Below are positions 6,372 through 32,144 of a DNA stretch of 64,000 nucleotides, piece by piece (the first letter of the stretch is position 1; each line of letters opens with the position of its first letter). The stretch spans positions 493,634-557,633 of the forward strand of contig CP060227.1 of assembly GCA_023898525.1 (NCBI GenBank). The letters run 5' to 3'. The translations under genes and the position numbers were made by a program. The notes beneath the pieces were generated by a model, which made no database searches, had not been told where the DNA came from, and saw nothing but the letters and a program-made list of their open reading frames with translations. Source of the stretch: Candidatus Nomurabacteria bacterium. Its GTDB lineage: Bacteria; Patescibacteriota; Minisyncoccia; Phycocordibacterales; UBA918.

Positions 6372-6425
6372 GATTGTTCGTACCTACGAACAATACACCA
6401 GGTTGCTTTTTTTGGCAAGCTGGGA

Positions 6426-6482
6426 AGTGAATAAAAGTGAAAGCCCGCCGGCTACGCCGGCGGGCTTTCACTTTTATTCACC
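6426..6482. terminator. Bidirectional intrinsic terminator: near-perfect 27-bp-arm palindrome AGTGAATAAAAGTGAAAGCCCGCCGGC-TACG-GCCGGCGGGCTTTCACTTTTATTCAC
   Basis: A GC-rich core is flanked by T-rich arms directly downstream of the hsp20 stop. Confidence 0.65.
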
Positions 6483-6486
6483 TCCC

Positions 6487-7919: not shown

Positions 7920-8914
7920 CTACCTATTATACCTTGAACTAACTTCCATTCTCAATTTTTTTGTATTACCATGTGAAAGTAATCCAAGATAAGCTTGCAC
8001 AACCTCTTCTTTACCGTCTTTTATCGTTAGCTCACGAAACATTTTTCGTTTTGTCGACGTCCGTAACACACGGTGTCTGGGAAAGTGTACCCAACCCAAG
8101 AAATCAACTCCACTTGCCAGAGTCTCAATTGATATTTTATTTGGATGTAACTGTAGCGCCAATTTCTCTTCGAGAAATTGGCGCAGTCCCAAAAAAGCTC
8201 CACCAAATACTCCTTATCCCGTGACAACACCACAAAATCATCAGCATACCGAATATAATATTTGGCTTTGAGTTCGTGTTTCATAAACTGATCAAACTCA
8301 TTCATGTATACATTCACCAAAAGTTGGCTGGTCAAGTTGCCGAGTGGCAAACCTTTATTTGGCTGAATTTGAAAACTATTAATCACTTGCCCCAGCAACC
8401 AAAGAACGTCTTCATCTCTAATGTGCTTTTGTAAGATATCCAGTAGAATTTTATGATCAATGCTAGCAAAGAACTTTTTGATATCACACTTGAGTACCCA
8501 ACAGGTTTTGGTGTGATTTTTTGAAACTATGACGGAGAAGTTTTTGAAGCGCTGAATAGCTTCATGTGTTCCTTTACCAACTCGACAAGAATACGAATCA
8601 TAGATGAATTTTTTATCAAAGTAGGGATAGAGCTTTCGGTAGATAGCGTGGTGGAGCAAACGGTCACGGACACTCGCTTTGTGAATGTTGCGAGGTTTAG
8701 GGTCAGAGATATTGAATGCTTCATAAGTTCCGTGTTTGTATGTTTTGTTTTTTAAATCTCGGTGTAGATCAAAAATGCTATCCATCAAAGTGTACTGAAA
8801 AACTTGCACATCTTTACGCTTACGCTTTCTGTGCAAAAACTCTTCCCACGCGCCAAGAAGATTATCGAGAGAAATGATATTATGGTAGGTAATGTCAGGC
8901 GCAAACAAAAACAT
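7920..8914 (-). pseudogene. DGR reverse transcriptase, split by a frameshift at a T6 run (plus-strand A6 at 8191-8196)
   Basis: The motifs are FASIDH, LPLGNLTSQLL (DGR-specific GxxxSQ) and IRYADDFVVL (YxDD). The N-terminus has HGTYEAFNISDPKPRNIHKASVRDRLLHHAI. The C-terminal thumb (LHPNKISIETLASGVDFLGWVHFPRH) continues in the -1/+2 frame (track ORF 7920..8192). One extra T would fuse the two ORFs into a ~331-aa RT. Confidence 0.8.
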
Positions 8915-9302
8915 ACCTCAGTCTACCCCCCCCCGCGCGCGACAAATTCAACAACCTAGGTTGATTCCGGTCGTCTTGAAGTTGAAAGATACGTATCGTG
9001 TATGGCAGGAGTACCTTATATCTTTTCCTAAGCAAAACCGCTACACGCTCGGTAACAAGATTGACGACGTATTTTTACTCGCCATTGAGTACTGCTTCTT
9101 AGCTAGTTACGCCAGCAAAGACACAAAGCTGATTCACCTTGAACGCTGTATATCACGGGTCGATTTATTGAAATTGTTGCTTCAACTTGCCTGGGAAATA
9201 CGCGCTCTTGATACCAAGAAATACACGGTACTTGGTGAGCGGCTACAAGAAGTCGGTAGAATGCTTGGTGGCTGGAAGAAAGGCATTGAAAGTAAACGAT
9301 GA
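8892..9302 (+). CDS. avd: DGR accessory variability determinant (Avd), four-helix-bundle / 23S-rRNA-IVS protein family
   Basis: The C-terminus LQEVGRMLGGWKKG closely matches Bordetella phage bAvd IAEVGRILGSWIAR. The central GNKIDDVFLLAIEY..LL helices fit the family. It is divergent from the RT. The ATG at 8892 overlaps the RT start, and an alternative TTG start at 8961 is possible. Confidence 0.7.
   Translation: MSGANKNIPQSTPPRARQIQQPRLIPVVLKLKDTYRVWQEYLISFPKQNRYTLGNKIDDVFLLAIEYCFLASYASKDTKLIHLERCISRVDLLKLLLQLAWEIRALDTKKYTVLGERLQEVGRMLGGWKKGIESKR
8926..8934. repeat. Poly-C(9) tract followed by GCGCGCG in the divergent avd/RT 5' region
   Basis: The only long C/G homopolymer in the window. 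It sits 12 nt from the RT start codon, inside or just upstream of the avd 5' end. Confidence 0.6.
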
Positions 9303-9429
9303 AATGAAATTTATTCGTCCAGCAATTTCTTCTAGAAATGGAAGAAATTGGGACGTAAATTCGCAATATTCGCTTGCGCTCGTTTGCTCATTTAAAAAAC
9401 TCCCCACGTTAAGTGAGGAGAAAATGGTG

Positions 9430-9547
9430 TGTTGCTGTACCACCAACCGATGACGATTGTCGGCATTCCAGACGTTGTCGTTGTCGAAGCGGTTGACGTT
9501 AGCCTTGAGCTTGCCATCATCCACATTGACGTTGGCAACGAACAGAA
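9430..9547 (-). repeat. DGR template repeat (TR), 118 nt
   Basis: It is 102/118 identical to the VR. All 16 mismatches are plus-strand T in the TR (adenine in minus sense) against A/C/G in the VR. Minus-sense translation shows the typical AAC(Asn)-rich template VANVNVDDGKLKANVNRFDNDNVWNADNRHRLVVQQH. Confidence 0.9.
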
Positions 9548-9792
9548 ACGATATGTGAAATGCGCCATCTATACCACCAACCATTGATCATAAGTGAACA
9601 AGGTTTTGTATTTTACGCGGGACCTCAAAGTCCACCAGCGCACTTCACCAACAAACTATTTTTTAAAAGAAACTAACATGTCCACACTTTACGCAACCGT
9701 GATCACGCAAACTCCAAGATATGCTGTCTCACTCACAGACTTCCACAGCCGTAGCCGTAAAATAATATCTGTGGCTTCATAAGTATACAAAA

Positions 9793-9823
9793 GTCCCCTG
9801 AACACGCGAAGTGCCCAAGGGAC
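9793..9823 (-). other. GC-rich imperfect hairpin ~30 nt 3' of the target stop (candidate DGR target-recognition hairpin)
   Basis: GTCCCCTG...CAAGGGAC with one mismatch. Its position relative to the VR end is analogous to the BPP-1 hairpin/cruciform. Confidence 0.3.
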
Positions 9824-9850
9824 AAAGGGTCAAAGACCAAAGTGCAGAGG

Positions 9851-10438
9851 TCAAACAGTCTGTTGCTGAACCACCAACCGACGACGATCGTCGGCATTCC
9901 AGACGTTGCCGTCGTCGAAGCGGAAGACGCGAGCCTTGAGCAGGCCAACATCCACAAGGACGCGGGCAACGAACAGAACTCCGTTCACCTCAAACAAGAA
10001 GAACGTACCGTAGCCACCTTGCCGGAGTGAGTCGCGATGATTGCGACAGAACTCTACAATCTGCCCTTGCGACAGCGCAAGCTGGCGTGGATCGCCGAGC
10101 GACTCGAACAGCGTTTCGTATGTGCCGTTGCGAGTCATCTCGTGGACATCGACCGTGACCTCGTTCGTGTCTTCGCCGGAAACATCAGTACTCCAGTTCT
10201 TGAAGTCACTGTCGAGGTAGCCAGTGAAGACATCCTCAGCTTCTGCGAGCGTGACACTGCCCTGAGTAGGGGCGAGGGTGACGGTTTTGAGGCGACGAAG
10301 GTATTCACGCTTCTCTTCCAGAATCTGCTGCAAAACATCGGCAACAGATTCGGCGTCGCGCACTCCGTCAACCACCATCATGTTGATTTTTGTCTGCAAT
10401 TTAAACAGACGCTCAATCGTTTTGGTGTCATTACTCAT
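9851..10438 (-). CDS. DGR target protein (195 aa) with C-terminal variable region
   Basis: The ORF ends with the VR. It has no signal peptide and is unusually small for a DGR target. Its fold is not assignable from sequence here. Confidence 0.75.
   Translation of the reverse strand: MSNDTKTIERLFKLQTKINMMVVDGVRDAESVADVLQQILEEKREYLRRLKTVTLAPTQGSVTLAEAEDVFTGYLDSDFKNWSTDVSGEDTNEVTVDVHEMTRNGTYETLFESLGDPRQLALSQGQIVEFCRNHRDSLRQGGYGTFFLFEVNGVLFVARVLVDVGLLKARVFRFDDGNVWNADDRRRLVVQQQTV
9861..9978 (-). repeat. DGR variable repeat (VR) at the 3' end of the target gene
   Basis: See the TR entry. It encodes the C-terminal VARVLVDVGLLKARVFRFDDGNVWNADDRRRLVVQQQ of the target. Confidence 0.9.
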
Positions 10439-10622
10439 GACATTCTCCTTTCAATAAACCATTACTCATGGTCTGCCAGAGGGCCTAACTACCTTATGTA
10501 GGTTTACCATAGCTTGAAATCAACAAACTTTTGCTGACTTGAAGCTACGGTAAAAAATAAAGAACAATTTGTTAATTATAACATGGTTAACGTTTTTAGT
10601 CAAAATTACGTCCCTGAATTCT

Positions 10623-11642
10623 CACCCTAATTGCACAATCCTTTGCACCCTAATTGCACAGGTCAAGATGACATACATACTGCTTTTGTATGTCACACAA
10701 ACAAATAGGACCGGAAGACTGGCCGGTTATTTCACGTATGCTCAAAGCGGGATACTCAGGAGTGGAGATTGCGCACATTATCAACAAAGATCCAAGTGCG
10801 GTTAATAGACATATTAAAGCGTATGGTGGTCGGGATAGATACGATGCTCGCGAGGTTCGCAGAAAGAAAAAACAGGCACGTATCATTGCTATGGAAGGTA
10901 CTAGAATACTCAAAGGAGTATTATTACGAGAAGTGAAACGATTATTAAAACAACACTACTCACCGGAACAGATAGTCGGAGTACGTGATGACATCTCTGC
11001 GAGCACTATCTACCGATACATTAACGAACGAGCTCCACACCTTAAACAATTTCTTCGTTCTCAGAAAGGCAAGTATCGGCGCAAACGAGGCACCAAAATA
11101 CGTGAAAAAGTTCGTGAAAGAGCCAAGAAACGTCGTATTGATGAACGACCGCCCATTATTGAACGTCGCTCCCGTTTGGGAGATTGGGAGGGAGATACTA
11201 TGCTGGGAAGAGACAAACGAGTACGTATTGTCACCTTCGTTGATCGCAGAAGCGGGTATCTAATTGCGTATCTTCTGCCAAAATTAAATGCTACTTTACT
11301 CACTAAACTGGCGGTGGAAAAATTCAGGCGTATACCCAAAAACAAACGAAAGACCGCTACCTTTGATAACGGTACCGAGTTCAGTGACTGGGAACGGTTT
11401 GAGAAACAAACGAGTATGACTGTGTACTTTGCTTATCCATACCACTCTTGGGAGCGTGGTACCAATGAAAATACTAACGGGCTACTTCGACAATATTTTC
11501 CGAAAGACTTGGATTTCAACACCATTACTCCACAAGAACTTTCTGAAGCGGTTCGTCGTATAAATCATCGTCCTAGAAAGAGACATAATTTCAAGTCTCC
11601 ACATCAGATATTTTGGAAGTGATGGTCTGTGCAATTAGGGTG
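10623..11642 (+). mobile_element. IS30-family insertion sequence (~1 kb) with a duplicated left inverted repeat
   Basis: The left ends are CACCCTAATTGCACA at 10623-10637 and again at 10646-10661. The right end TGTGCAATTAGGGTG at 11627-11642 is their reverse complement. It encloses the transposase gene. No clean target-site duplication was found. Confidence 0.75.
10690..11622 (+). CDS. IS30-family DDE transposase (310 aa)
   Basis: An N-terminal HTH and the DWEGDTMLG...FDNGTEF...YFAYPYHSWERGTNENTNGLLRQYFPK...INHRPRK catalytic core, typical of IS30. Confidence 0.85.
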   Translation: MSHKQIGPEDWPVISRMLKAGYSGVEIAHIINKDPSAVNRHIKAYGGRDRYDAREVRRKKKQARIIAMEGTRILKGVLLREVKRLLKQHYSPEQIVGVRDDISASTIYRYINERAPHLKQFLRSQKGKYRRKRGTKIREKVRERAKKRRIDERPPIIERRSRLGDWEGDTMLGRDKRVRIVTFVDRRSGYLIAYLLPKLNATLLTKLAVEKFRRIPKNKRKTATFDNGTEFSDWERFEKQTSMTVYFAYPYHSWERGTNENTNGLLRQYFPKDLDFNTITPQELSEAVRRINHRPRKRHNFKSPHQIFWK

Positions 11643-11700
11643 GTGATTCAAGGTTCCGCTAGATTCTAGTCTGAAAAGCAACAACATCTAATTCCAGCAC

Positions 11701-11780
11701 GCTAGTGCTACTAAGCACTAGCTCTGGACACATAAAAAAAGAAGTATAGAAAAATTCTATACTTCTTTTTTTATGTGTCC
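11701..11780. repeat. Two palindromes 3' of tRNA-Leu: GCTAGTGCT-ACTA-AGCACTAGC (11701-11722) and a 26-bp-arm perfect palindrome GGACACATAAAAAAAGAAGTATAGAA-AAA-TTCTATACTTCTTTTTTTATGTGTCC (11726-11780)
   Basis: The right arm of the long palindrome overlaps the tRNA-Leu 3' acceptor strand. So a downstream inverted copy of the tRNA 3' end encloses an A/T-rich hairpin. Confidence 0.7.
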
Positions 11781-11859
11781 AGGACTGGAGTTGAACCAGC
11801 ACGGGGAAACCCCCACTACCCCCTCAAGGTAGCGCGTCTACCAATTTCGCCACCTGGAC
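11776..11859 (-). tRNA. tRNA-Leu (anticodon GAG), class II with long variable arm
   Basis: Reverse complement: GTCCAGG acceptor, anticodon stem CTACC/GGTAG with loop TTGAGGG, variable arm TGGGGGTTTCCCCGT, T loop TTCAACT, discriminator A. No CCA is encoded. Confidence 0.75.
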
Positions 11860-11885
11860 ATATTTTTAACGACCACCGGGAGTAT

Positions 11886-11910
11886 AAAAATAGAAATACT
11901 CTTGTGGTGG
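11886..11910 (-). repeat. tRNA-associated conserved motif, copy 1 (minus sense CCACCACAAGAGTATTTCTATTTTT)
   Basis: Near-identical motifs occur at 44765-44786 and 15136-15160, each next to a tRNA gene. Confidence 0.6.
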
Positions 11911-11980
11911 ACAATTGTCTTTATTTAACAAAGCCCCTGCATTATGCCTGAAAAGATAGTTCACTTCAAGCGAAGTGAGA

Positions 11981-12033
11981 CCACAATTACTGAAAAAACC
12001 AGACCGTACGGTCTGGTTTTTTCAGCAATTGTG
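11981..12033. terminator. Bidirectional terminator: near-perfect 26-bp-arm palindrome centred on AACCAGACCGTACGGTCTGGTT, flanked by A6/T6 runs
   Basis: It lies immediately downstream of the rplS stop (12042), with a single mismatch between the arms. Confidence 0.65.
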
Positions 12034-12041
12034 GTTTGAGC

Positions 12042-14910: not shown

Positions 14911-14983
14911 GCGCGATTAGCTCAGTTGGTAGAGCAGCTCGTTTACACCGAGAAGGTCGGGAGTTCAAGTCTCTCATCGCGCA
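14911..14983 (+). tRNA. tRNA-Val (anticodon TAC)
   Basis: GCGCGAT acceptor, D arm GCTC-AGTTGGTA-GAGC, anticodon loop TTTACAC, T arm GGGAG-TTCAAGT-CTCTC, discriminator A. Confidence 0.75.
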
Positions 14984-14984
14984 C

Positions 14985-15026
14985 AATATTAAATACCACC
15001 AGCTTCTGCTGGTGGTATTTAATATT
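14985..15026 (+). terminator. Palindromic terminator AATATTAAATACCACCAGC-TTCT-GCTGGTGGTATTTAATATT directly after tRNA-Val
   Basis: A perfect 19-bp-arm palindrome. Confidence 0.6.
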
Positions 15027-15135
15027 TGTCGCCAGAGACTTGAAGGCCGGAATGTAGCGAAGCGGAATGAGGCGGGGTCGCGAGCCCAAAAAATAATAAG
15101 TTAACGAGACATTGTTTTCTTATGAGGGACGAATT

Positions 15136-15206
15136 AGAAAAAAAGAAGTACCCTTGTGGCGAGTATATTTTTTGAGGACTTGTGACCAAGTCTCTCTTCG
15201 CGCACA
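15136..15206 (+). repeat. tRNA-associated motif copy 3 (AGAAAAAAAGAAGTACCCTTGTGG) plus a degenerate copy of the tRNA-Val 3' end (CCAAGTCTCTCTTCGCGCACA)
   Basis: Compare the tRNA-Val 3' end TTCAAGTCTCTCATCGCGCACA. In addition, 15027-15050 carries a partial inverse copy (CAGAGACTTGAA). Confidence 0.5.
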
Positions 15207-19326: not shown

Positions 19327-19460
19327 AAAAGCCGCTTTAATTCTCAACCTGAAAAGTCGTCTTATAGACGGCTTTTGCTTTGTTTACACCAAAAATATTT
19401 TTAAATATTTAGTATTCCCTCTTTGGATATTTTCTGCTATCCTGTGAAGCACCATCCATT

Positions 19461-19535
19461 GCCCCCATAGTTCAATGGATAGAACAGGAGACTTCTAAGC
19501 TCTTGATGTGGGTTCGATTCCTGCTGGGGGCACCC
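19461..19535 (+). tRNA. tRNA-Arg (anticodon TCT)
   Basis: GCCCCCA/TGGGGGC acceptor. The anticodon loop CTTCTAA is identical to the bacterial tRNA-Arg(UCU) loop. The T loop is TTCGATT. Confidence 0.7.
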
Positions 19536-19598
19536 AATAGTGAGACCTACTGAGAGGGGTTAATACCCCACTAACCTCAGTAAGTCTAGCGAAACAAT

Positions 19599-19626
19599 AA
19601 ACCACCCAATCGGGTGGTTTATTGTT
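19599..19626. terminator. Bidirectional terminator AAACCACCC-AATC-GGGTGGTTT + ATTGTTTAT between convergent genes
   Basis: A 9-bp stem and a T-rich tail. Confidence 0.6.
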
Positions 19627-20180
19627 TATGCAATCGAATCAAAATGTTCTCGAACTGTTTTGCCTTGATATGTCCAATAAATCGTCCCTTGTACTGCTTT
19701 CCAATCCTTCCCAAACTGTTTCTTAAGCACATCTTTTGCGGCTGTCGAAAGTGAGGTTTCCTTACCTTTGAATTTTATCTTCCCGTTAGGCAACACTGTA
19801 GCAACTATGTTCTTATAGATTTCTCCATCAACAAAAAGAAGTTTGGCTCCGTCTGGAATGCTCGCTTGGGCAAACTTACTCTTTGACTCTTCTTCCTGTC
19901 GCACCTTGCCTTTATGCTCACGAATAAAATCACACACCCTCTCAGGGTGCTCCTCAATAAACTCTCGTCTTCGATTTAATCTTTTATCTGAAAAATGTTT
20001 TAGTACTTCTTGTTCTAGCAGTTCAGCATTCTCTATTGCAAAACTTTCATAAATTTGGAAACGAGTCGGTACTCCAGTTTTATTTAAATCGTTTAAGCGT
20101 CGTTCCAGGTTATCTGTAATACCTACCTTACAAAGGCTTGGCATGGAAATATTGGTAATGACATAAAGAATCGATTTCAT
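19626..20180 (-). CDS. T5orf172 / GIY-YIG-like domain protein (184 aa)
   Basis: The N-terminal ILYVITN..VGITDNLERRLNDLNKTGVP..F pattern matches T5orf172 (PF10544). Confidence 0.5.
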   Translation of the reverse strand: MKSILYVITNISMPSLCKVGITDNLERRLNDLNKTGVPTRFQIYESFAIENAELLEQEVLKHFSDKRLNRRREFIEEHPERVCDFIREHKGKVRQEEESKSKFAQASIPDGAKLLFVDGEIYKNIVATVLPNGKIKFKGKETSLSTAAKDVLKKQFGKDWKAVQGTIYWTYQGKTVREHFDSIA

Positions 20181-20252
20181 TAGTCGAAGTATAGCAGTTG
20201 GCTAAGATTGTGGAAATTTTACAAAATCACACATCTAATTGATGTGGTTTTA

Positions 20253-21404
20253 TTATTTTTGAGCTAAGTCGTTGAAAGTATCTGTAAGTTGCTGAATCAA
20301 GGTTGAATATATGAGACTAAAATCTGACCCTTCTGCAATACCGAGTCTTTCACAAACTGTTTTCAGTATTTCCTCATAATCATTCTTGCTCTGTGCATGG
20401 AGCAAACTCACCCTTAAGTCATATAGAACAAACAGAGAAGAAACGGTGCTATGAATATCTTTTTCTGGATACCTCAAACTAAAGCACATCTCCAGTTTCT
20501 TAAGGGTACCCAAATCAGCGGGGTCACCACCGAGTGTCACAATTGACCTCTTTAAATTTGTTGCGTGCAATGACTCTATGACTATCTTATTGAGCAAATC
20601 AATCACATCTTTCATTTCCTTTACACTATGAAAGACGGGAGTGTTCAATTCTTCAATAGAAACGAGGGTCTCTTCTTTTAAATTTTCGAACTCAAGACCA
20701 AATTCTTTAGTAGCAGCTTCTAAAAATTCAGCTCTGGCATTAAGTAGTGCATCTTCTGGAGAATGTTCAGTAAACTTCACTTCAATTTGGCCGTCATAAA
20801 ATTCACTACCTATATCATGATCTGATTCAACATTTTCTGACCTTAAATAATACTGTTCATTTCTAGGTAATGAAGCAACATCTCCCAACCACATAATTAA
20901 CTTCCCATTTCGGTTAATACCAAAAGAGATGTAAAACTCATCGCTGCCATATATCGTCCCATATGTTTTTGATGCTAGTCGTACTCTATAGTTTGGGTTA
21001 TTTTGAAATTTGATAAGAGCTTCTTTATTGAAAAATACAGGTGTTAAAAATCCAACATCATGTGGTCTTTCAAGACCAGGCAAAAGAAAATAATCATCAG
21101 GATCGTACAGAAAATCTATGTCAGTAAATTTAAATTCTTCCTGAATCTTATTTCTTGCCTGAGTAAACTCAGCAAGACCTGCCTTTGTAGCTCTTTGGTG
21201 CAAGTGAATCACACACGCACTACCATGTTCAGGTAGGCACCTAAAACCGCAGCTGGGACAAACCAGATACGGGAAGTTTTCGAGGTGAAAGTGTACACCT
21301 GTAACTGTTTCATCAAAGACGTCGTAGTCTAAAATCATCCAGTCACCACATTTATCGCAATATATGTCTCTTCTTTCTTCAAGAAAAAATTCATTTATCT
21401 CCAT
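20253..21404 (-). CDS. Hypothetical 383-aa protein with N-terminal C4 zinc ribbon (CDKCG...CPSCG); unknown function
   Basis: No recognisable catalytic motif. It lies 13 nt downstream of hsdR in the same orientation. Confidence 0.4.
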   Translation of the reverse strand: MEINEFFLEERRDIYCDKCGDWMILDYDVFDETVTGVHFHLENFPYLVCPSCGFRCLPEHGSACVIHLHQRATKAGLAEFTQARNKIQEEFKFTDIDFLYDPDDYFLLPGLERPHDVGFLTPVFFNKEALIKFQNNPNYRVRLASKTYGTIYGSDEFYISFGINRNGKLIMWLGDVASLPRNEQYYLRSENVESDHDIGSEFYDGQIEVKFTEHSPEDALLNARAEFLEAATKEFGLEFENLKEETLVSIEELNTPVFHSVKEMKDVIDLLNKIVIESLHATNLKRSIVTLGGDPADLGTLKKLEMCFSLRYPEKDIHSTVSSLFVLYDLRVSLLHAQSKNDYEEILKTVCERLGIAEGSDFSLIYSTLIQQLTDTFNDLAQK

Positions 21405-21416
21405 CTCAATAAAAGT

Positions 21417-24218
21417 CTACCACTCAAAGATATCTACAATATCTACAATCGCACCTTTAATGCGGTCAATGATTCCTTGTCGTTTAAGTACACTTGGTGT
21501 CTCTGGTAAAAGAGCAATAATGTCATCTCCTAAAGGAGTCCTCTGTGTATAGATATACTCGCCGATAAGATCTTGGAAGGATTCGAGGTTTATATGCTCA
21601 TCTTCTGCAACTTTCCGCAAAGCACTTGAGCGTTCACTGTCCCAGAACTTAGCAAATTCAGCTTCAACATCTTCTGAACGGCCAATCTGGGGAAGGTTCT
21701 CTTTTATAAACTTTTGTATAAGTTCTTTCTTCTTACGAAGTTGAATATCACGATCAAAGATCTTAAGGATTTCATCAGTCTTCTTAGCTCTAAGTGTGTC
21801 TGACGTAACATCCTTAAGCCCAGCGATTAGCTTGATAATGTAGTCAAAATTTACAATATCAGTCGCAACAAGCTCCAATTCAAAATCAATCTGATCTAGT
21901 ACGGACTCAAGTTGTTTGCTGTCCTTATTCTTTCGCTCCTCGTATACATCAAGATACTTACTTTGGTAATCGTAGAATTCTTGTTCAGTTATACCTAAGT
22001 CAGCGAAATCAAATTCAGCAAAGGTCTCAAGCGATGATTTAATACGAAGCAAATCACGGAAACTCTGAACAAATGACGCTTTTTCTTCCTCACTTTGAAT
22101 TTTATCCACGTCCTCAACATTTGGCACTTTCTCACGAAGCTCTTCCAGCTTCGCGCCAAACTCTTTCTTCTGTTCTTCGTATGGTTTCTTAAATACCACT
22201 TCTTTAGCGTTTTCATCACCAAAAAGTGCCAACGCTTTATCAGTATTCTTTTTCAGATTACGAAACGAGACAATATTACCGTGTGGCTTATCTGAGTTGA
22301 GGAGACGATTTGTACGTGAATAAGCTTGAACCAAACCATGATAGCGAAGATTCTTGTCGACATACAAAGTGTTAAGCCGAGGGCTATCAAAACCTGTCAA
22401 AAACATGTTTACAACCAAAACCAAATCTACCTCTTTATCTTTGATGCGTTGTTGAAGGTTTTTGTAGTAATCATAGAAGGTGTCAGTTGAATAATTAGTA
22501 CCAAACTCGCTGTTATATTCTTTTATACATCGCTCAAGGAAGTCTCGAGAATGTTCATTTATAGGAGCGTCGGTATCAGTAAACACATCTGCATCAAGCA
22601 TGTCTGAACTTTCATCTTCATTTGCCTGATAGGTAAAGATGGTGGCAATTTTGAAATCCTCGGGCTTCTTGGCTTTAAATAAATTGTAGTATTTCTTCAA
22701 CACTTCAATACTCGGAGTAGCAAAAATAGCATTAAACTTACCATTCTTAGTCTTTCGCTTCCAATCTTGCAAAATATACTCAGTGATTTTTTGGAGACGG
22801 TCATCTGACTCCAAAATCTCTTTAGTGTTAATGCCCTCAACTTCCATATCAGCAAAGATGTCCGCATCGAGTGTATCCTGTTCCTTTTGAGTATATTTAC
22901 CGACATATTCAACAGCAAAGCCGAGTACATTACCGTCAGAAATGGCGTTTGTAATGATGTACTTATGTAAACACTCTTCAAATACATCCACCGTGGTCAC
23001 ACCACCAACATTATTGTCCGCAAAGATTGGTGTACCCGTAAAGCCAAATAGTTGTGCCTTCTTGAAGAAATTCTTAATGCGAGCGTGAGTTTGTCCAAAC
23101 TGACTTCGGTGACATTCATCAAAAATAATAATCACCTTTTCATCAGCCAAGTCTGCAAACTGATTAAGATACCCCTCCCGACCAATAGCGATGTCTAGCT
23201 TTTGTATAGTGGTAACTATTAGTTTACGTGTGGGATCTTTAAGTTGGTCAACGAGAGTACGAGTACTACTTGTCCCATCTACTGACCCAGCGGAGAAGGA
23301 GTTGAATTCTTTTGTAGTCTGAATATCTAAGTCCTTACGATCAACCACGAAAAGTACTTTCTTAACTTCAGGGATATCTGAGAGTATCTGACTAGCTTTA
23401 AATGATGTTAACGTCTTACCTGAACCAGTTGTATGCCAGATATAGCCATTTTTAGATGATTCCTTTACTCGATTCACAATACGTCGTACTGCAAAGTATT
23501 GATATGGTCGAAGAATAAGCGGAATGTGAAGTGACTCAGCAAGCACGATGTATTCTGCGATCATCTGCGACACCGCGCACTTCTCAAGAAATACTGAAGC
23601 AAAGTCTTCCAAACGAGTAATCTTTTGATTATTTTCATCTGTCCAATAAAACGTCTGCTCGAAAGACTGCTTTGGATTGTTTGAGAAATACTTAGTGTTT
23701 ACTCCGTTTGAAATGACAAAAATTTGAATGTATTCAAAGAGGCTGCCAGCATATGAATGCTTGTGATATCGCTGGATCTGATTGAAGGCCTCTTTCAATT
23801 CCATCCCTCGACGCTTTAGTTCGACCTGCACCAGTGGCAAACCATTTACAAGCAGTGTCACATCGTAACGATTTTTATATGAACCGACTTGGGTGATCTG
23901 CTGAGCAACTTGGTACTCATTCTTGCACCACTGCGCCATGTTAAAGAAACGTACGTAGAATGTACTCTCATCATCACGCTTAAGCGCAAAACGGTCACGC
24001 AGTGTTTTTGCTTTTTCAAAGCGATCTCCCTTATTGAGATGATTGAGAATTTGTGAGAACTCATTATCAGAGAAAGTAACACCGTTAAACTTACCTAACT
24101 GAGAACGCAAATTAGTAACCATTGCATCACTATCAACCAGAACGACAGACTCAAAACCCAACCCTTGAAGTTGTTTCAGGAGTGTTTTTTCTAGTTCTTG
24201 TTCGGATTGATGAGTCAT
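21417..24218 (-). CDS. hsdR: Type I restriction enzyme R subunit
   Basis: Walker A WHTTGSGKTLT, DEAH-box IIFDECHRSQ; 933 aa. Confidence 0.9.
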   Translation of the reverse strand: MTHQSEQELEKTLLKQLQGLGFESVVLVDSDAMVTNLRSQLGKFNGVTFSDNEFSQILNHLNKGDRFEKAKTLRDRFALKRDDESTFYVRFFNMAQWCKNEYQVAQQITQVGSYKNRYDVTLLVNGLPLVQVELKRRGMELKEAFNQIQRYHKHSYAGSLFEYIQIFVISNGVNTKYFSNNPKQSFEQTFYWTDENNQKITRLEDFASVFLEKCAVSQMIAEYIVLAESLHIPLILRPYQYFAVRRIVNRVKESSKNGYIWHTTGSGKTLTSFKASQILSDIPEVKKVLFVVDRKDLDIQTTKEFNSFSAGSVDGTSSTRTLVDQLKDPTRKLIVTTIQKLDIAIGREGYLNQFADLADEKVIIIFDECHRSQFGQTHARIKNFFKKAQLFGFTGTPIFADNNVGGVTTVDVFEECLHKYIITNAISDGNVLGFAVEYVGKYTQKEQDTLDADIFADMEVEGINTKEILESDDRLQKITEYILQDWKRKTKNGKFNAIFATPSIEVLKKYYNLFKAKKPEDFKIATIFTYQANEDESSDMLDADVFTDTDAPINEHSRDFLERCIKEYNSEFGTNYSTDTFYDYYKNLQQRIKDKEVDLVLVVNMFLTGFDSPRLNTLYVDKNLRYHGLVQAYSRTNRLLNSDKPHGNIVSFRNLKKNTDKALALFGDENAKEVVFKKPYEEQKKEFGAKLEELREKVPNVEDVDKIQSEEEKASFVQSFRDLLRIKSSLETFAEFDFADLGITEQEFYDYQSKYLDVYEERKNKDSKQLESVLDQIDFELELVATDIVNFDYIIKLIAGLKDVTSDTLRAKKTDEILKIFDRDIQLRKKKELIQKFIKENLPQIGRSEDVEAEFAKFWDSERSSALRKVAEDEHINLESFQDLIGEYIYTQRTPLGDDIIALLPETPSVLKRQGIIDRIKGAIVDIVDIFEW

Positions 24219-24247
24219 AGACCTCTATATAACCTAATAATTAGAAA

Positions 24248-25390
24248 TTACACAAACATTTTCTGGAGAAGGCCTCTTTTCCAAGTCTCTGCTTTCTCGA
24301 TCTGCTTTGACTTAAATTCAATTAGTTCGTCAACAGATTTTAGGAAATTGCTAATTTCAAGCTGCTCATCCTTTGAAGTTGGCACTGTAACTTTAATTTC
24401 TTTAAGGTGCTTAAACTTTAGATTCCAAGTATCTGAAGTAAGACCCTGCGAATAACGGTAGAAATCAAACACCACTCTCGGTATCTTGAATAAATAGCCA
24501 AAAAAATTAGGATCGCCAGTCTTAGGAGCGACAACTGTATATGCTGGACTCACAATTCCTTCAAAGGCAGACACACCGGATGCCCCTTGCCACATCCTCA
24601 TTGTGTTATATGCAATATCATTTTTGCGGACTACTTTGTAATTTGATTTGTTACCACTAGAATTATTTTTCTTAACTGAATCATCGTATTTAGTTACGCC
24701 GTTTTTCATTGTGATCGAAAGCAAATCATAATTTTTATTACCCGCTCTTTCAGTTCTTTCTTCTATGATTTTACCAAGTCTTACTGTTTGCCAATCAGGA
24801 AAATTCTTTCCATTTTTATCTTTAAAACGTACTTCCTGTGTGAAGATTTTTAGCATAACTCCCTGCTTAAATTCTTCAAGTTTCTCCCTCTGGTATTTCA
24901 TTTTTTCAATAAGTGAATCGGCATTATTAAGAAAAACTTGAATCTTTTTTTGTTCACCTACAGAGGGTAGGAAGACCTTTATTTTTCCAATGGTACTTCT
25001 TGATAAACTTGGTACGCCAGATGCCTCGTTGTACTTCTTCCAATAGATATTCTGAAAAAGTCTATAAACGAATTTGGGGGTGACTTCTTTGAAGTCACTA
25101 GTATAAAAGAGAGTATCAACAGTCCAAAAACGACCGCTAAAATAAACTGGCTTATCAATAGTACCCTTGCGACCAATGAACACTGACTCACCATCATGAA
25201 GAGCTTCATCAACATAAGTCATAACCCCACCGGTACCAAAAACTGGCACATTACCTGCTTTGAGATGTTTATAATCTCTACCACTACATACTGTGAGTAT
25301 TTGAGCAATTCGTTTTTCTTGCCATGAGTCAGAAAATTGTGAAAATCGCAGTTCGGGCACTTTTTTCTGTTTTGTAGAAGATTCAGACAT
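24248..25390 (-). CDS. hsdS: Type I R-M specificity subunit (two target-recognition domains)
   Basis: 380 aa. Its TRD1 is homologous to the N-terminus of the second hsdS at 52674..53843. Confidence 0.8.
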   Translation of the reverse strand: MSESSTKQKKVPELRFSQFSDSWQEKRIAQILTVCSGRDYKHLKAGNVPVFGTGGVMTYVDEALHDGESVFIGRKGTIDKPVYFSGRFWTVDTLFYTSDFKEVTPKFVYRLFQNIYWKKYNEASGVPSLSRSTIGKIKVFLPSVGEQKKIQVFLNNADSLIEKMKYQREKLEEFKQGVMLKIFTQEVRFKDKNGKNFPDWQTVRLGKIIEERTERAGNKNYDLLSITMKNGVTKYDDSVKKNNSSGNKSNYKVVRKNDIAYNTMRMWQGASGVSAFEGIVSPAYTVVAPKTGDPNFFGYLFKIPRVVFDFYRYSQGLTSDTWNLKFKHLKEIKVTVPTSKDEQLEISNFLKSVDELIEFKSKQIEKAETWKRGLLQKMFV

Positions 25391-25392
25391 GA

Positions 25393-26961
25393 TTAAAACG
25401 GTATTTTTATTCCAAGTTCTTTACACGTTTCACTTATGACTTTCTCTAACTTAGTTTCGTTTATTTTCAAGTTCTTAAGCTCTGTTGCGACGGCATCCAC
25501 ATTAATTGAAACCTCCTCTTCGAATGTGTCTACATAGCGAGGAATGTTTAAGTTGAAGTCATTTTCTCTAATTTCTTCTAATGAGGCATTGTGTGAGTAT
25601 TTATCAATCTCCTTTCGGTGACGGTAGGTATCAAAAATTTTTTCAATATGTTCATCATCCAAGAAGTTTTGATTTTTACCCTTACGAGAATCTCTTGAAG
25701 CTTCAATAAAGAGAATCGTATCGTCTTCTTTTCTACACTTCTTAAATATGAGAATCGTTGCTGGAATGCCAGTACCATAGAAAAGATTTGCTGGTAGTCC
25801 GATAACAGCATCGAGATAATTGAGTTTTTCAATAATGTACTTACGAATATGACCTTCGGCTCCCGAGCGAAATAGTGCACCGTGTGGCAAAACAACAGTC
25901 ATCGTACCGTTATCAGATAGATGATGGAGCATGTGAGTAACAAACGCGTAGTCCGCAGCTCCTTTTGGGGCAAGTCTTCCGTATTGAGAAAATCGATCGT
26001 CTGCAGCAAGGGTCGGGTCAGTATCACCCTTCCACTTTGCCCCAAAAGGAGGATTGGCCACTACTGCTTCGGCCCTAAGATCTGGAAGTTTATCGTCCGT
26101 GAGAGTATTGCCGTTCTCAATATCAAATTTTGAATAGTGTACTCCATGCAAGATCATGTTCATGCGAGCAAGGTTATACGTAGTTGTGTTGTACTCCTGT
26201 CCATAGTAATGAGCAATTTCAGCATATTCTCCAAGGCGCAGAAGAAGTGAGCCAGAACCACACGTAGGGTCATAAACTGAGCGAAGTTTTTTCTTACCAT
26301 CAGTCACAATCATTGCCATGAGTCGTGAAACTTGAGCAGGAGTATAGAACTCACCCGCTTTCTTCCCAGCCCCCGCCGCAAACTGAGAAATGAGATACTC
26401 ATACGCATCACCCAGCACGTCGCTCTTTGCGTCTTCCAATCTAAAATCAATCTTTGAGAGATGTGAGAGAATCGCAACTACTCTCTCGTTTTTGATCTTT
26501 TCTGATGACCCGAGTCTTACTGAGGCAAGGTCTACATCTGCAAACAGACCTTTGAAGTCATCTTCGCTATCAGTACCAGAAGAAGTCTGCTCAATTGAGT
26601 TAAGTACTCCCTTAAGGTCTTCGAGTATGAACTTGTCGTCACCTCGTTCACCGTTGCCTTTCTTAACAACTTCCGCAAAAAGTTGATTTGGCAACAGGAA
26701 GAACCCAAGTTTTTCGAGTGAGTGTGTTTTGACCGCTTCAATGTACTCTTTATCTTTCTTTATATCTAAACCAGCAAAAGTGCGCTTGTCAGCTTTCAAA
26801 AGTTCCTCGTTAGCATATTTCTCAAGCTTTTCAGAAAGATATTTATAGAAAATGAAGCCAAGAATGTAATTCCTGTACTCATCAGCATTCATGCTACTTC
26901 TTAGCGTATCTGCCACCGCCCACAGTTGTTTCTCTAGAAGTCTTTTTTGTTCGTCTGACAT
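25393..26961 (-). CDS. hsdM: Type I R-M N6-adenine DNA methyltransferase subunit
   Basis: The NPPFG motif (VVANPPFGAKWKG) and an AdoMet motif in its N-terminal half. Confidence 0.9.
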   Translation of the reverse strand: MSDEQKRLLEKQLWAVADTLRSSMNADEYRNYILGFIFYKYLSEKLEKYANEELLKADKRTFAGLDIKKDKEYIEAVKTHSLEKLGFFLLPNQLFAEVVKKGNGERGDDKFILEDLKGVLNSIEQTSSGTDSEDDFKGLFADVDLASVRLGSSEKIKNERVVAILSHLSKIDFRLEDAKSDVLGDAYEYLISQFAAGAGKKAGEFYTPAQVSRLMAMIVTDGKKKLRSVYDPTCGSGSLLLRLGEYAEIAHYYGQEYNTTTYNLARMNMILHGVHYSKFDIENGNTLTDDKLPDLRAEAVVANPPFGAKWKGDTDPTLAADDRFSQYGRLAPKGAADYAFVTHMLHHLSDNGTMTVVLPHGALFRSGAEGHIRKYIIEKLNYLDAVIGLPANLFYGTGIPATILIFKKCRKEDDTILFIEASRDSRKGKNQNFLDDEHIEKIFDTYRHRKEIDKYSHNASLEEIRENDFNLNIPRYVDTFEEEVSINVDAVATELKNLKINETKLEKVISETCKELGIKIPF

Positions 26962-26968
26962 AAGCGGT

Positions 26969-27181
26969 TTATTTTAAAAGCTGATTAATACTTACTCCTA
27001 AAGCGTTGGCAATTTTTTCTACTGTATGAACCCTAGGGTCCGGTGTTATACCACGTTCGATCTTCGAAATCGTGTGGTAATCAAGACCAGTATCTCTCAC
27101 TAAATCGCTCTTTGAGCGACCTGATTTTTTCAATAACTCTTTAATATTTGCTCCAATTTTTGAATCAAGCTTCTCGTTCAT
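26969..27181 (-). CDS. Small XRE-family HTH protein
   Basis: LKKSGRSKSDLVRDTGLDYHTISKIERG. The start is taken at MNEKLDSK. Confidence 0.55.
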   Translation of the reverse strand: MNEKLDSKIGANIKELLKKSGRSKSDLVRDTGLDYHTISKIERGITPDPRVHTVEKIANALGVSINQLLK

Positions 27182-27257
27182 GTAAAAGTTTTGCTTAGCA
27201 TAATTATACCAATAGTGAGAGTAGTAAATTCGCATTGATGTGAACAAGAAAGTCATA

Positions 27258-28655
27258 TTATTTGCCTAAACTTATAGTTTTGTTTGCCAGCAGAAGTCTG
27301 GTTTTCAGACAGGATAATAGCTCTCGTTTTTCATGAGCTTGCCCTTCCCTCAGAATGTACTTAGCGTAGTTTCGTACCTCAATATCTTTCACTTTCACCT
27401 TCGTCTCTTTCTCACCAAGTAATCCAGCTTGAAACTTTTTATGTCGTTCAATCTCATCTTTAATTTTTTTGCGCATTCCGATTTCATCAAACGCTATCTT
27501 GTCCATCAGTCCAGCTAGTTGCTCGATCAAATCTTCTTCGTTTATGTACCCACATGTACAGTTTTTATCGTTATGCTTCGTGCACCCGTAATACACGTAC
27601 CGGTGTACGTTTCCGTTCTTTTGAGTTTTGTATTTCTCATCAGCAGTGATACCTGAGCCACATAGACCGCAACTCAGTAACTTGGTGAAGGCAAACTCTT
27701 TTGTCTGCCATCCGTCTGACCTGCTGTTTTGTACTTTGATCTTTTCCTGCACCTGATCGAAGAGCGCTTTGCTAATGATTGGTTCATGTATGCCCTTATA
27801 CCACTCACCACTGCCTTTCGGATATTCGAACGTTCCATAGTAGAAATGGTTTCGGAGAATCATATATAGATTGCCGAGGTATATCGGTTTGCCTGTTCTT
27901 GTCGTGAACTTCACTTCGTCACGAAGCCAGAAGTAAAGTTGTCTACCTGTTAGGTTCTCGTACGCGATCTTCTCAAACATCTTCTTTACAATCGGTGCTC
28001 TCTTGGGGTCTATGTCCTTGTGACACTTTTTGTCAGTGCGATTACTATTCAAATATCCCGTCGGTGCAATACATGGATAAAGACCCATCTCACACCGTGC
28101 TCGCATACCTCGCTTTACGTTCTGAACTTTGTTGTCATTTTCTAGTTTGGCTTGTGATCCAAGAATCATCAGTAGAAACTTTTCATTTGGGTTGTTGGTG
28201 AACTTCTGGCCGTACGTTCGTATCTCGTGCAGTGTTCCCGAGTCCATGAGATCCACTATTCGTCCGAGATCTCCTGCATTCCTTGAAATTCGATCAGGTG
28301 CCCATGTCAGTATGGCGTTGAACTTACCGCTATGGATATCTGCTACAAGCTCGTTGAACACTGGTCTCGTGCCAGCTTCTTTAGCGGAATGTGACTCCTT
28401 CCTGATTTCAGCCACCTCCAGATTATCTCGCTCCGCCATCTGCAGCATTTCTTTGATCTGAGAGTCGATAGAAAGCACTTGCATCTCCTCAGACTCCGTC
28501 GACTTACGTGCGTACAAGCAGTATTTTAGTGTTACTGGCGCTACTATTTTGCTCGACACGAACCCCTCTGGTGCTTCTGTTCTGCTCATTACCAACACTA
28601 ATGACGCAACCCCTCTAGGAAGTCTAGAGGGGTTGGTAGTTGGTAAGTTGATCAC
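27258..28655 (-). CDS. Large serine recombinase, paralog 1
   Basis: The catalytic-domain YARKSTESEE (nucleophile Ser), LSIDSQ, ILTWAPDRISRNAGDLG, and a C-terminal recombinase domain with a Cys-rich zinc ribbon. Confidence 0.85.
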   Translation of the reverse strand: MINLPTTNPSRLPRGVASLVLVMSRTEAPEGFVSSKIVAPVTLKYCLYARKSTESEEMQVLSIDSQIKEMLQMAERDNLEVAEIRKESHSAKEAGTRPVFNELVADIHSGKFNAILTWAPDRISRNAGDLGRIVDLMDSGTLHEIRTYGQKFTNNPNEKFLLMILGSQAKLENDNKVQNVKRGMRARCEMGLYPCIAPTGYLNSNRTDKKCHKDIDPKRAPIVKKMFEKIAYENLTGRQLYFWLRDEVKFTTRTGKPIYLGNLYMILRNHFYYGTFEYPKGSGEWYKGIHEPIISKALFDQVQEKIKVQNSRSDGWQTKEFAFTKLLSCGLCGSGITADEKYKTQKNGNVHRYVYYGCTKHNDKNCTCGYINEEDLIEQLAGLMDKIAFDEIGMRKKIKDEIERHKKFQAGLLGEKETKVKVKDIEVRNYAKYILREGQAHEKRELLSCLKTRLLLANKTISLGK

Positions 28656-29200
28656 TGAAAATCCTTCGCGACACCAGTCACATTCATACGGTAGTTCAAC
28701 ATTTCCTTGCTAATACCGTATTTTCTAGTCGCCTGAACATCCGTGAGTTTTTGTTTCTTTATATAAATACAAGCTTCTCGTGGAAGAAGTAGACAACCAG
28801 ACAACCACCCCGCTTCATCTTCTTCATCCTGATTGTACGAAGCATACAGCAACCCATCGATAACATAATTCTTTCCGCCCTCATGCCCCAAAATCAAATG
28901 AGACAGTTCATGAGCCAAGTTACTAGCCTGTCTTGCTTTCGAATGTGTCGGATTTAAAACGATCACCGCAAGATCATTCGACCTTATCGTCATAGCAGAC
29001 CAGCTGTCGGGATCATCTTCTGTCAAAGTCTTGCAACATTCTTTACTCACACCATTAATGTCTTCTGGCAACCAAATCCTAATGCCATGCAGCTCTGCCA
29101 GTACCCACATGTCTAGCGGGGAATAGGCCTGATGTCCTTGTCTCTTCCTTATGTTAAGCGCGGTTTTCTCCGCCCATGCTTTGAAACCACGTTTATACAT
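28652..29200 (-). CDS. ImmA/IrrE-family HExxH metallopeptidase
   Basis: HELSHLILGHEG. It lies directly downstream of an XRE HTH gene, matching the ImmR/ImmA or CapH/CapP pairing. Confidence 0.75.
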   Translation of the reverse strand: MYKRGFKAWAEKTALNIRKRQGHQAYSPLDMWVLAELHGIRIWLPEDINGVSKECCKTLTEDDPDSWSAMTIRSNDLAVIVLNPTHSKARQASNLAHELSHLILGHEGGKNYVIDGLLYASYNQDEEDEAGWLSGCLLLPREACIYIKKQKLTDVQATRKYGISKEMLNYRMNVTGVAKDFQ

Positions 29201-29209
29201 ACCGGGACC

Positions 29210-29584: not shown

Positions 29585-29600
29585 ACATAATACAAAAATG

Positions 29601-29630
29601 TTTGACAGATAAGACGCTCATGCCTTATAC
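29601..29630 (+). promoter_or_regulatory. Sigma-70-like promoter TTGACA-17-TTATACT reading rightwards into the Ubl operon
   Basis: -35 TTGACA at 29601-29606 and -10 TTATAC(T) at 29624-29630. It lies in the divergent intergenic region next to the XRE gene start. Confidence 0.5.
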
Positions 29631-31904: not shown

Positions 31905-31924
31905 ACTAAGCTAAAGTGCTGACT

Positions 31925-32140: not shown

Positions 32141-32144
32141 TTAT

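Follow-up and report, generated by a model that had tools for sequence, protein, structure and literature searches.

Why should a tRNA gene be followed, one hairpin further on, by an inverse copy of its own 3' end? The question arises from a 64,000-nt stretch of contig CP060227.1 (positions 493,634 to 557,633, hereafter the window) that comes from a Candidatus Nomurabacteria metagenome-assembled genome (MAG) of the Paceibacteria/Parcubacteria, within the candidate phyla radiation (CPR), with a G+C content of ~40%. Paceibacteria and other CPR bacteria have tiny genomes in which little mobile DNA or regulatory RNA is known. The window holds six tRNA genes, none of which encodes its CCA. At three of them (tRNA-Leu, tRNA-Val, and tRNA-Arg) an earlier note had described a hairpin after the tRNA, an inverse complement of the tRNA 3' end beyond it, and a near-identical motif close by, and had proposed scars of a tRNA-targeting integrative family as one explanation. 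This architecture is indeed present at the three genes, far beyond chance. Two independent, nested families of small non-coding DNA combine in it, firstly a cassette of 125–330 nt located directly 3' of tRNA and tmRNA (transfer-messenger RNA) genes, and secondly a dispersed hairpin repeat that carries the motif. Both recur across Parcubacteria/Paceibacteria and appear to be undescribed, and our literature searches found no published description of either.

Architecture and recurrence of the cassettes

Read on the tRNA strand, the cassettes share one ordered architecture. The tRNA itself contributes the segment from the T loop to the discriminator (S1), and directly after it comes a first hairpin (hp1), which differs in sequence from cassette to cassette and in many cases has a GC core with an A tract on one side and a T tract on the other. 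Beyond hp1 the discriminator and the 3' strand of the acceptor stem are present as their complement (anti-acceptor). A second hairpin (hp2) is placed exactly at the acceptor/T-stem junction; its base is conserved (AGCRA..TYGCGT) and its stem covaries freely. After hp2, a complementary segment covers the 3' strand of the T stem together with the T loop (anti-T). We refer to the whole inverse copy as antiS. Next stands a structured module, either of family A (GAA-RGCCGGAG-hairpin-GAGGCGG[G/T]GC..-hairpin-..GTGACC) or of family B (AAGYTTTGCTATATTTTYGAG-hairpin-YGAGAAAATTGCAAAGGTRTACYG, then a 6-bp stem with a GTA loop), and the far end of the cassette is a direct tRNA copy (S2) that runs from the T loop to position 73/74.

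The Leu, Val, and Arg(gcg) loci of the window all fit this scheme (Table 1). The inverse complement that had been noticed past each hairpin is exact at Arg, where it covers the last 14–15 nt of the tRNA just past a GC-rich hairpin, forms part of a 28-bp palindrome at Leu, and is degenerate at Val, with an exact T arm of 11 nt. The outer 7 bp of the Leu palindrome join the final 7 nt of the tRNA (11776–11782, acceptor 3' strand) to the anti-acceptor (11724–11730), and the Leu hp2, a class of hairpin that also adjoins other tRNAs, is predicted to fold as a separate arm of a three-way junction. The predicted folds of the cassettes are far more stable than those of shuffled sequences (z = -11.1 at Arg, z = -12.2 at Leu), and in the minimum free energy (MFE) fold of the Arg locus the inverse copy pairs with the 3' part of the tRNA. 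In the cassettes folded, the MFE structures pair antiS with S1, or with S2 when S1 is withheld. The family-B right end of the Arg cassette includes the 6-bp stem and GTA loop, and its motif recurs in L025, L032, L102, L108, L070, L080 (L numbers denote the loci retrieved), and in metagenome loci. The Val cassette has no hp2, and in it a family-A module is combined with a B-like end; the Val-type module also lies 3' of other tRNAs in L072, L067, L007, L045, L026, and metagenome loci. The degenerate direct copy suspected at Val is also real (17/18 nt).

Inverse copies at other tRNAs had been expected, and they are frequent. In a first sample of 65 tRNAs (those of the motif-selected loci plus the window), an exact inverse match to the tRNA's own 3' end of at least 8 nt was found within 160 nt downstream in 25 cases (permuted null ~5), of at least 9 nt in 22, and of at least 10 nt in 18 (null ~1.7). 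A direct copy of at least 10 nt was present within 600 nt of 25 of the tRNAs (null 0.86), and 18 had copies of both kinds. Overall, a cassette accompanies ~40% of the tRNAs in the sampled related Paceibacteria loci, and more than 20 tRNA types were found with one.

An independent metagenome set was collected with an hp2 variant 19-mer (CAAACTGCTTTGCTTGYGT), which gave more than 120 matches, and 80 loci with 83 matches were read. An intact tRNA or tmRNA gene lies just upstream on the same strand in 68 of the 83, most of the others being on truncated contigs or later members of an array. Among the upstream genes are tRNAs of more than 20 anticodon classes, one suppressor-like tRNA, and tmRNA genes (6 matches in 5 loci). 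The segments beside the constant 19-mer match the local tRNA in each case, on average at 8.2 of 10 nt for the acceptor and 10.9 of 13 nt for the T part, and at informative positions antiS follows S1 and not S2 (30/31).

The boundaries of the direct repeat are sharp. Across 63 cassettes its left edge falls in the T loop, with modes at 15 and 18–20 nt before the discriminator, and its right edge lies 0–2 nt past the discriminator in 32, with a tail into hp1; in L152, L219, and L205 the repeat itself runs into hp1. Most direct copies stand 125–330 nt downstream of the tRNA. Cassettes are also found as arrays of two or three (L086, L026, L023, and L079, the latter behind tmRNA), and in L023, with three cassettes, the second holds an ORF (open reading frame) of 107 aa. 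By inspection, the same tRNA type tends to have the same module family across metagenomes. No recurrent protein family was found within 4.5 kb of the 83 cassettes, no recombinase was linked to them in cis, and no remnants of recombinase pseudogenes were found near cassettes.

Table 1. Coordinates of the tRNA genes, cassette segments, hairpin-repeat units, and elements described in the window.
Feature	Position	Strand	Remarks
tRNA-Leu(gag)	11776-11859	-	ARAGORN and Rfam; last ~20 nt are S1
Leu hp1	11724-11782	-	Perfect 28-bp palindrome (11724-11751 / 11755-11782), 3-nt loop
Leu hp2	11699-11723	-	Minus sense AGCTAGTGCTTAGTAGCACTAGCGT; conserved base AGCNA..TNGCGT
Leu anti-T, degenerate	11685-11698	-	Sequence and fold
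Insertion sequence, IS30 family	10612-11653		Transposase ORF 10690-11622; 26-nt inverted repeats 10612-10637 and 11628-11653
Leu-locus hairpin-repeat unit, long form	11857-11907	+	Motif 11888-11907; nhmmer E = 3e-9
tRNA-Val(tac)	14911-14984	+	ARAGORN and Rfam; carries S1
Val hp1	14985-15026	+	19-bp stem, loop TTCT; sequence and fold; kept in orthologous L278 cassette
Val inverse copy (antiS)	15027-15044	+	AGAGACTTGAA, exact 11-nt T-arm complement; acceptor part degenerate
Val family-A module	15045-15087	+	GGCCGGA - hairpin ATGTAGCGAAGCGGAAT - GAGGCGGGGTCGCGAGCCC
Val-locus hairpin-repeat unit	15108-15159	+	Motif 15140-15159; nhmmer E = 3e-9; in cassette loop
Val right end and S2	15163-15205	+	Right end ..TTTTTGAGGACTTGTGACC; S2 15188-15205, 17/18 direct copy
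tRNA-Arg(gcg)	44975-45046	-	ARAGORN and Rfam; carries S1
Arg(gcg) hp1 and inverse copy	44926-44973	-	hp1 44941-44973; inverse copy 44926-44940
Arg(gcg) cassette body	44808-44925	-	Two more hairpins; family-B right end GGGTACTGAACATGTAAT at 44808-44825
Arg(gcg) S2	44786-44807	-	Direct 22/22 copy of 44974-44995 (T loop to discriminator + 1)
Arg-locus hairpin-repeat unit	44736-44786	+	Motif 44767-44786; abuts S2; nhmmer E = 5e-11
tRNA-Ser(tga) element	45828-47075	+	tRNA, 1.1-kb gene-carrying element, family-B-type right end AAAGGTATACAGCTCGTGTAACGAG, degenerate S2
tRNA-Arg(tct) and 18-kb island	19460-37743	+	Distal direct copy of tRNA 3' end 37722-37743, degenerate

A dispersed hairpin repeat carries the shared motif

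The motif had been noted at all three loci. Its 20-nt core AAAWAGAARTRCYCTTGTGG has exactly three matches in the window, all on the + strand (11888, 15140, and 44767), against a chance expectation of 0.15, and none of 100 shuffles reached three. When one genome per species was scanned with this 20-mer, 112 loci were matched, often several per genome; approximately 100 belong to Parcubacteria/Paceibacteria MAGs (Taylor-, Zambryski-, Kaiser-, and Nomurabacteria, some labelled Saccharibacteria) and ~10 are chance matches elsewhere. The motif proved to be the conserved 3' half of a repeat unit of the form (C)GAC[T/A]TATTTT - stem - loop - stem - AAAATAGAAGT[A/G]C[T/C]CTTGTGG (in short, GACWTATTTT - covarying stem - AAAATAGAAGTRCYCTTGTGG), 41–59 nt in length. 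The short form has 41 nt and the long forms, which include the three window copies, have 52–59 nt, with an apical module ..UGAG-hairpin-CGAAUUAG... Two apical base pairs covary, being changed on both sides in 10 of 22 distinct sequences and unpaired in none, a covariation score that was reached by 0 of 500 shuffles.

A profile search found 151 units in 853 kb, often in tandem and intergenic save for spurious ORFs and chance matches. Their orientation relative to the neighbouring genes has no bias (32 same/same, 34 opposite/opposite, 16 divergent, and 12 convergent). The tie of the motif to tRNAs did not survive this search, given that only 12 units lie within 60 nt of a tRNA and the other 139 do not, which for the motif is the outcome that the earlier note had named as refuting, and the motif belongs to a separate dispersed repeat. 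Six of the 12 tRNA-near units, in other genomes, abut a complete tRNA gene exactly, with the terminal TGG reading as CCA after the discriminator, and the junction of unit and S2 at the Arg locus of the window is the same one. The second direct copy reported at Arg is genuine over its 22 nt, but the CCA in which it seemed to end (44784–44786, tRNA sense) is the terminal TGG of the abutting unit. At the Leu locus the GAC end of the unit overlaps the 5' end of the tRNA. The YRC triplets flanking the units often match at other sites.

Several further observations concern this repeat. In nine Taylorbacteria-type loci (L038, L042, L043, L076, L084, L097, L104, L110, and L111) the unit end ..CTTGTGG is followed by TATAAT and, 6–9 nt on, by ATG. 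To judge from these sequences, the unit end may create an extended -10 box (TGnTATAAT) before apparently leaderless genes, and the repeat may act as a promoter donor. As a promoter of the tRNAs or of a small RNA in general the motif was rejected, there being no orientation bias versus flanking genes, even if some copies do form TGnTATAAT ahead of ATG codons. In nine other loci from different MAGs (L034, L079, L027, L077, L087, L092, L048, L026, and L035) the unit occupies the same spot of a family-A module, between GGTGC[C/T]C and [T/C]RCAGAC, which reflects either an old common insertion or a strong hot spot; uninterrupted modules are found in L079 (4060–4120) and in L086. L070 (1600–1790) has a complete tRNA-Val(gac) within a long hairpin (TATCAGTGT..ACACTGATA) that interrupts what appears to be another tRNA gene, with a unit directly after the 3' end of the outer gene.

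Other identities were discarded for the unit. It is not a primer-binding site or a retro-copied tRNA-CCA, as the CCA is part of the unit in all copies, even far from tRNAs. The apical UGAG..CGAA does not satisfy the hammerhead core and, as for a K-turn, Rfam gives nothing. A REPtron was considered for L001, where the genes between inverted units resemble, by eye, the DsbA/DsbB type and not a transposase.

The tRNA-Val site in related genomes

The tRNA-Val(tac) site, located beside an acylphosphatase gene, was found in five states among relatives. The cassette is absent in L276 and L274/275; L277 has only hp1 and a perfect 10-nt anti-acceptor; L278–L281 have the cassette; the window has the cassette plus the unit; and in L271 and L273 the gene of a large serine recombinase (LSR) of 543 aa abuts the tRNA 3' end. 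L272, with an identical acylphosphatase, is without this LSR gene, a strain-level insertion polymorphism at the site. The LSR of L271/L273 is homologous to those of the window (27% identity, E = 4e-26). Four other proteins of the window, looked up by exact sequence for sister strains, had no match.

The site also provides an empty and a filled version for the hairpin repeat. The unit is flanked in the window by a 3-bp CGA duplication (15105–15107 and 15160–15162), with the sequence ..TTAA-CGA-[unit]-CGA-GTATA.., while L278–L281 read ..GCTTG-CGA-ATATA... Since this related species has the same cassette without the unit, the unit is an insertion with a 3-bp target duplication.

Larger elements and other mobile DNA in the window

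The region is dense in mobile DNA, with an IS30-family insertion sequence, a diversity-generating retroelement, a type I restriction-modification island, and four LSR genes. Some of it uses the same kind of site as the cassettes. The element behind tRNA-Ser(tga) carries a beta-lactamase-family ORF (45980–47020) and ends in a degenerate S2 (47058–47075), after which comes an LSR gene (47144–48502). The island behind tRNA-Arg(tct) (19537–37721) carries type I R (21417–24218), S (24248–25390), and M (25393–26961) genes, two further DNA methylases, a T5orf172/RAMA-domain protein, a ThiF-family protein, an M78 peptidase, and two LSRs, and its distal end consists of degenerate remnants of a family-A module (~37270–37720). 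An 18-kb island between a tRNA and older cassette remnants is what one would expect if elements stacked at a single attachment site. The cassette remnants of the island begin right after a recombinase gene, and the motif is found there a fourth time, in degenerate form (CGACATCAGTCGCTCGGAAACCCTTGTGG, 37270–37300).

The four LSR genes are paralogous (27258–28655, 35827–37233, 47144–48502, and 59154–60488), and three of them lie within or beside stretches that a copy of a tRNA 3' end delimits. Close to LSR genes Rfam also detected two LOOT RNAs (31971–32089 and 60641–60756), each preceded by the same 35-nt repeat (31924–31958 and 60602–60636), and 153 nt separate the second from the start of a recombinase gene. 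The IS30 insertion sits within the cassette 3' of tRNA-Leu, which it cuts 31 nt past the anti-T segment. The retroelement (8027–10438) comprises a reverse transcriptase ORF (8027–8914, - strand), a bAvd-like ORF (8892–9302, + strand) unexpectedly opposite to it, and a template/variable repeat pair of 126 nt (9422–9547 and 9853–9978, 85% identical), the second copy lying at the 3' end of the ORF at 9851–10438 (- strand). Lastly, three very long, near-perfect intergenic palindromes were found (6422–6486, 11980–12035, and 37342–37385, with arms of 31, 28, and 22 bp). Two of them are loop-free, which suggests that palindromes in this genome are generated or perfected by some process at the level of the DNA.

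What the cassettes may be

We tentatively favour the explanation that the cassettes insert site-specifically at t(m)RNA 3' ends as small non-autonomous elements, most of them without cargo, and that they are mobilised in trans and invaded by an unrelated hairpin repeat. A cassette would enter at the tRNA 3' end and for this reason leave a direct repeat of tRNA positions ~54–59 to 73/74, one copy, S1, within the still intact gene and the other, S2, at the distal border of the cassette. The element would also bring its own hp1, placed directly after the tRNA, followed by the inverse copy of S split by hp2 and by one of at least two structured modules. Cassettes stack at one tRNA, and gene-carrying elements and LSR islands occupy the same kind of site with the same kind of repeat. 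Mobilisation would have to be in trans because most cassettes have no gene or recombinase. In an excised circle the contiguous S-hp1-antiS would fold on the tRNA-sense strand into a hairpin, presenting a double-stranded copy of the 3' segment of the tRNA gene as a recombination site, as in attC or the CTX attP. The hairpin repeat would transpose into intergenic DNA with a 3-bp target duplication, its known sites including cassette loops and the position just after the tRNA discriminator, where its end would give an encoded CCA. As for how the inverse and direct segments come to match more than 20 tRNAs, a templated correction of palindromes across hp1 is a candidate, based on the many perfect palindromes in the genome and on L277, with hp1 and the anti-acceptor alone.

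A number of points weigh against this explanation. We found no empty/filled cassette pair between close strains and no circle junction, and no cassettes in IMG/VR viral contigs. In many cassettes S2 is degenerate or not detectable, yet antiS has kept its complementarity to the tRNA, and a hairpin attachment site that needs both would not behave in this way. A fixed element alone cannot explain segments that match more than 20 tRNAs, and the rewriting step put forward for them is hypothetical. The islands here encode serine, not tyrosine, recombinases, and none is linked to the mini-cassettes. Finally, the window and L278 cassettes are, by eye, ~90% identical, the adjoining acylphosphatases only 76% at the protein level, and the spacer upstream of tRNA-Val looks, also by eye, less conserved than the cassette; for this reason the sequences suggest constraint or recent transfer and not decaying junk.

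The main rival explanation, possible although we consider it rather unlikely, is that the cassette is a functional cis-acting structured RNA, a 3' trailer of the tRNA whose bipartite antisense pairs with the 3' half of the just-transcribed tRNA or, in a variant, with S2, closing a tRNA-like minihelix. Its role would be to regulate or check the maturation of the tRNA, read-through, or the processing of downstream transcripts, and S2 and the arrays would be relics of its origin. Folding results count in favour of such a role, though the strand preference and the compensated hp2 stems are evidence for the insertion element as well. In 19 of 25 cassettes the strand in tRNA sense has the more stable fold of the two (mean difference -7.4 kcal/mol, p = 6e-4). 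The hp2 stems differ among copies with full compensation, the modules contain tandem G.A motifs (by inspection), and the hairpin unit sits in the loops of the cassettes rather than in stems. The exact position of hp2 at the acceptor/T-stem junction, an antiS that tracks the functional tRNA while S2 decays, the conservation between two species beyond the level of neighbouring sequence, the recurrence of module families with tRNA type in different metagenomes, and the lack of linked genes, which we count for the insertion element as well, all point in the same direction.

Other features are difficult to accommodate in an RNA trailer. Many copies of hp1 resemble a strong bidirectional terminator, with a GC core flanked by A and T tracts, and since it is placed before the antisense segment the rest of the cassette may rarely be transcribed from the tRNA promoter; a simple terminator scan flagged none of the hp1 copies of the window, because their T run is within the extended stem. 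No conserved promoter was seen, ~60% of the tRNAs have no cassette and orthologous tRNAs differ in having one, and tandem arrays and gene-carrying versions are hard to reconcile with a cis-regulator. Folding of the tRNA would have to compete with the pairing of its 3' half, for no obvious benefit. Nor does any Rfam family match, even weakly. Rfam 15 scans at gathering thresholds of the window and 18 loci, and permissive E-value scans of three unit/cassette stretches, gave no match to the cassette or unit, returning just tRNA, tmRNA, LOOT, and noise, and the family-A module as an RNase P RNA was likewise without Rfam support.

A more speculative reading, which we regard as doubtful, would take anti-acceptor, hp2, and anti-T as a programmable bipartite guide, that is, a constant scaffold hairpin between two segments that read the last ~20 nt of the local tRNA. 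If true, it would serve for nucleic-acid-guided integration of cassettes at tRNA genes, or for cis control of the maturation of that tRNA, and would imply a novel mechanism by which sequence taken from the target is written to either side of hp2.

It is very unlikely that the inverse copies simply arise in place, functionless and immobile, by replication template switching at long palindromic terminators (quasi-palindrome extension or inverted triplication). Such a process would fit the many long perfect palindromes of the genome, some loop-free, the Leu palindrome that runs seamlessly from the trailer into the tRNA, the reduced Val site of L277, and the direct repeats that extend into hp1 in L152, L219, and L205. 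It cannot, however, yield the same hp2 19-mer at the same junction beside more than 20 tRNAs in many genomes, nor the shared A and B modules, nor sharp repeat boundaries. Template switching may be the cause of the short extension of the Leu type and of the matching of antiS, but not of the cassette.

Equally improbable are decayed attL/attR scars of ordinary large islands or prophages that were later deleted. Recombinase-bearing islands do integrate preferentially at tRNA 3' ends here, degenerate cassette remnants stand at the distal end of the 18-kb island, and integration of this kind classically leaves a direct repeat of the tRNA 3' end. Random deletion scars would nevertheless not share hp2 and modules, and sizes are narrow, the same ordered internal architecture, with covariation, is found in more than 80 loci, and there are neither recombinase pseudogene remnants nor recurrent neighbours. 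Of the earlier proposal, the part that concerns a tRNA-targeting integrative family fits the direct repeats, arrays, and insertion polymorphism; the part that concerns scars sits badly with a conserved, covarying internal structure and no linked recombinase remnants. The other idea of the note, a tRNA processing or termination device, is possible. Two further candidates were rejected, namely a phage origin, both IMG/VR scans having given chance matches only, and convergent tRNA pseudogenes, of which the 5' half is absent and in which ARAGORN and Rfam find nothing.

Comparison with known systems

Genomic islands, CIMEs (cis-mobilizable elements), and tycheposon arrays are integrative elements that target tRNA and tmRNA genes, or non-autonomous derivatives of these. 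They resemble the cassettes in being located at the t(m)RNA 3' end with the gene kept intact, in the direct repeat from the T loop to the tRNA 3' end, in tandem accretion at one tRNA, and in sharing the site with recombinase-bearing islands. The cassettes differ in being just 125–330 nt long, mostly without integrase or cargo, with a conserved body of several hairpins, inside which a constant hairpin divides the inverse copy of the tRNA 3' segment in two. They are also found at ~40% of the sampled tRNAs, of all specificities, and the recombinases nearby are large serine and not tyrosine recombinases; serine recombinases are carried just by the large islands, in the window and L271, and no tyrosine recombinase was found among the window ORFs scanned. 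Tycheposon arrays, themselves tRNA-targeting elements, are among the closest systems that we can name (bioRxiv 10.1101/2020.12.28.424599).

Integron attC cassettes and CTX-type folded attachment sites share with our cassettes the arrays of small units at one site, the imperfect palindrome with a variable central hairpin, the conservation of structure over sequence, and a favoured strand-specific folding. Single-strand recombination is known for the attC/CTX type; for the tRNA cassettes it would be a supposition. They have no IntI, attI, or Pc, inspection of their sequences revealed no attC boxes (R/L boxes, GTTRRRY), and the arms of their palindrome are the tRNA's own sequence.

The hairpin unit can be compared with repetitive extragenic palindromic (REP) sequences and BIMEs, and with miniature inverted-repeat transposable elements (MITEs) such as Correia/NEMIS, RUP, and ERIC, all short, multi-copy intergenic hairpins, single or in tandem and in either orientation, near gene ends, and with a short target duplication. 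The unit end plus TAAT creates a TGnTATAAT box before genes, as Correia elements do. Unlike REPs, the unit has no GTAG head, starting with (C)GAC and ending with CTTGTGG, and no Y1 (RAYT) transposase was found among the 30 window ORFs scanned, the only part of the genome searched. Its ends (GACWTATTTT and CTTGTGG) are not inverted repeats as in MITEs and no parent insertion sequence was found for it, the inverted repeats of the window IS30 being unrelated to the unit ends. Compared to typical REPs its conservation is far deeper, with an exact 20-mer kept across Taylor-, Zambryski-, Kaiser-, and Nomurabacteria, and neither REPs nor MITEs are joined so exactly and so repeatedly to a tRNA discriminator.

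T-box leaders, and those tRNA 3' external transcribed spacers that serve as RNA regulators, are also non-coding and base-pair with tRNA or lie in the trailer. The cassettes, in contrast to T-boxes, have no specifier loop or T-box sequence, are not upstream of aminoacyl-tRNA synthetase genes, and pair with the 3' strands of the acceptor and T stems, which lie buried once the tRNA is folded.

Significance for the Paceibacteria

If they are mobile, the cassettes would represent a new and very small class of tRNA-site integrative element, and it would become a concrete question how an insertion comes to carry its target sequence twice, once inverted and once direct. Should they be RNAs instead, they would form a new class of tRNA-linked structured RNA. 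Under either reading they would explain assembly breaks and mis-annotated ORFs beside tRNAs in these MAGs. The hairpin repeat is useful as a marker of lineage, and promoters may derive from it (TGG end plus TATAAT). The cassettes, in turn, show where serine-recombinase islands with restriction-modification and beta-lactamase-family genes preferentially integrate.

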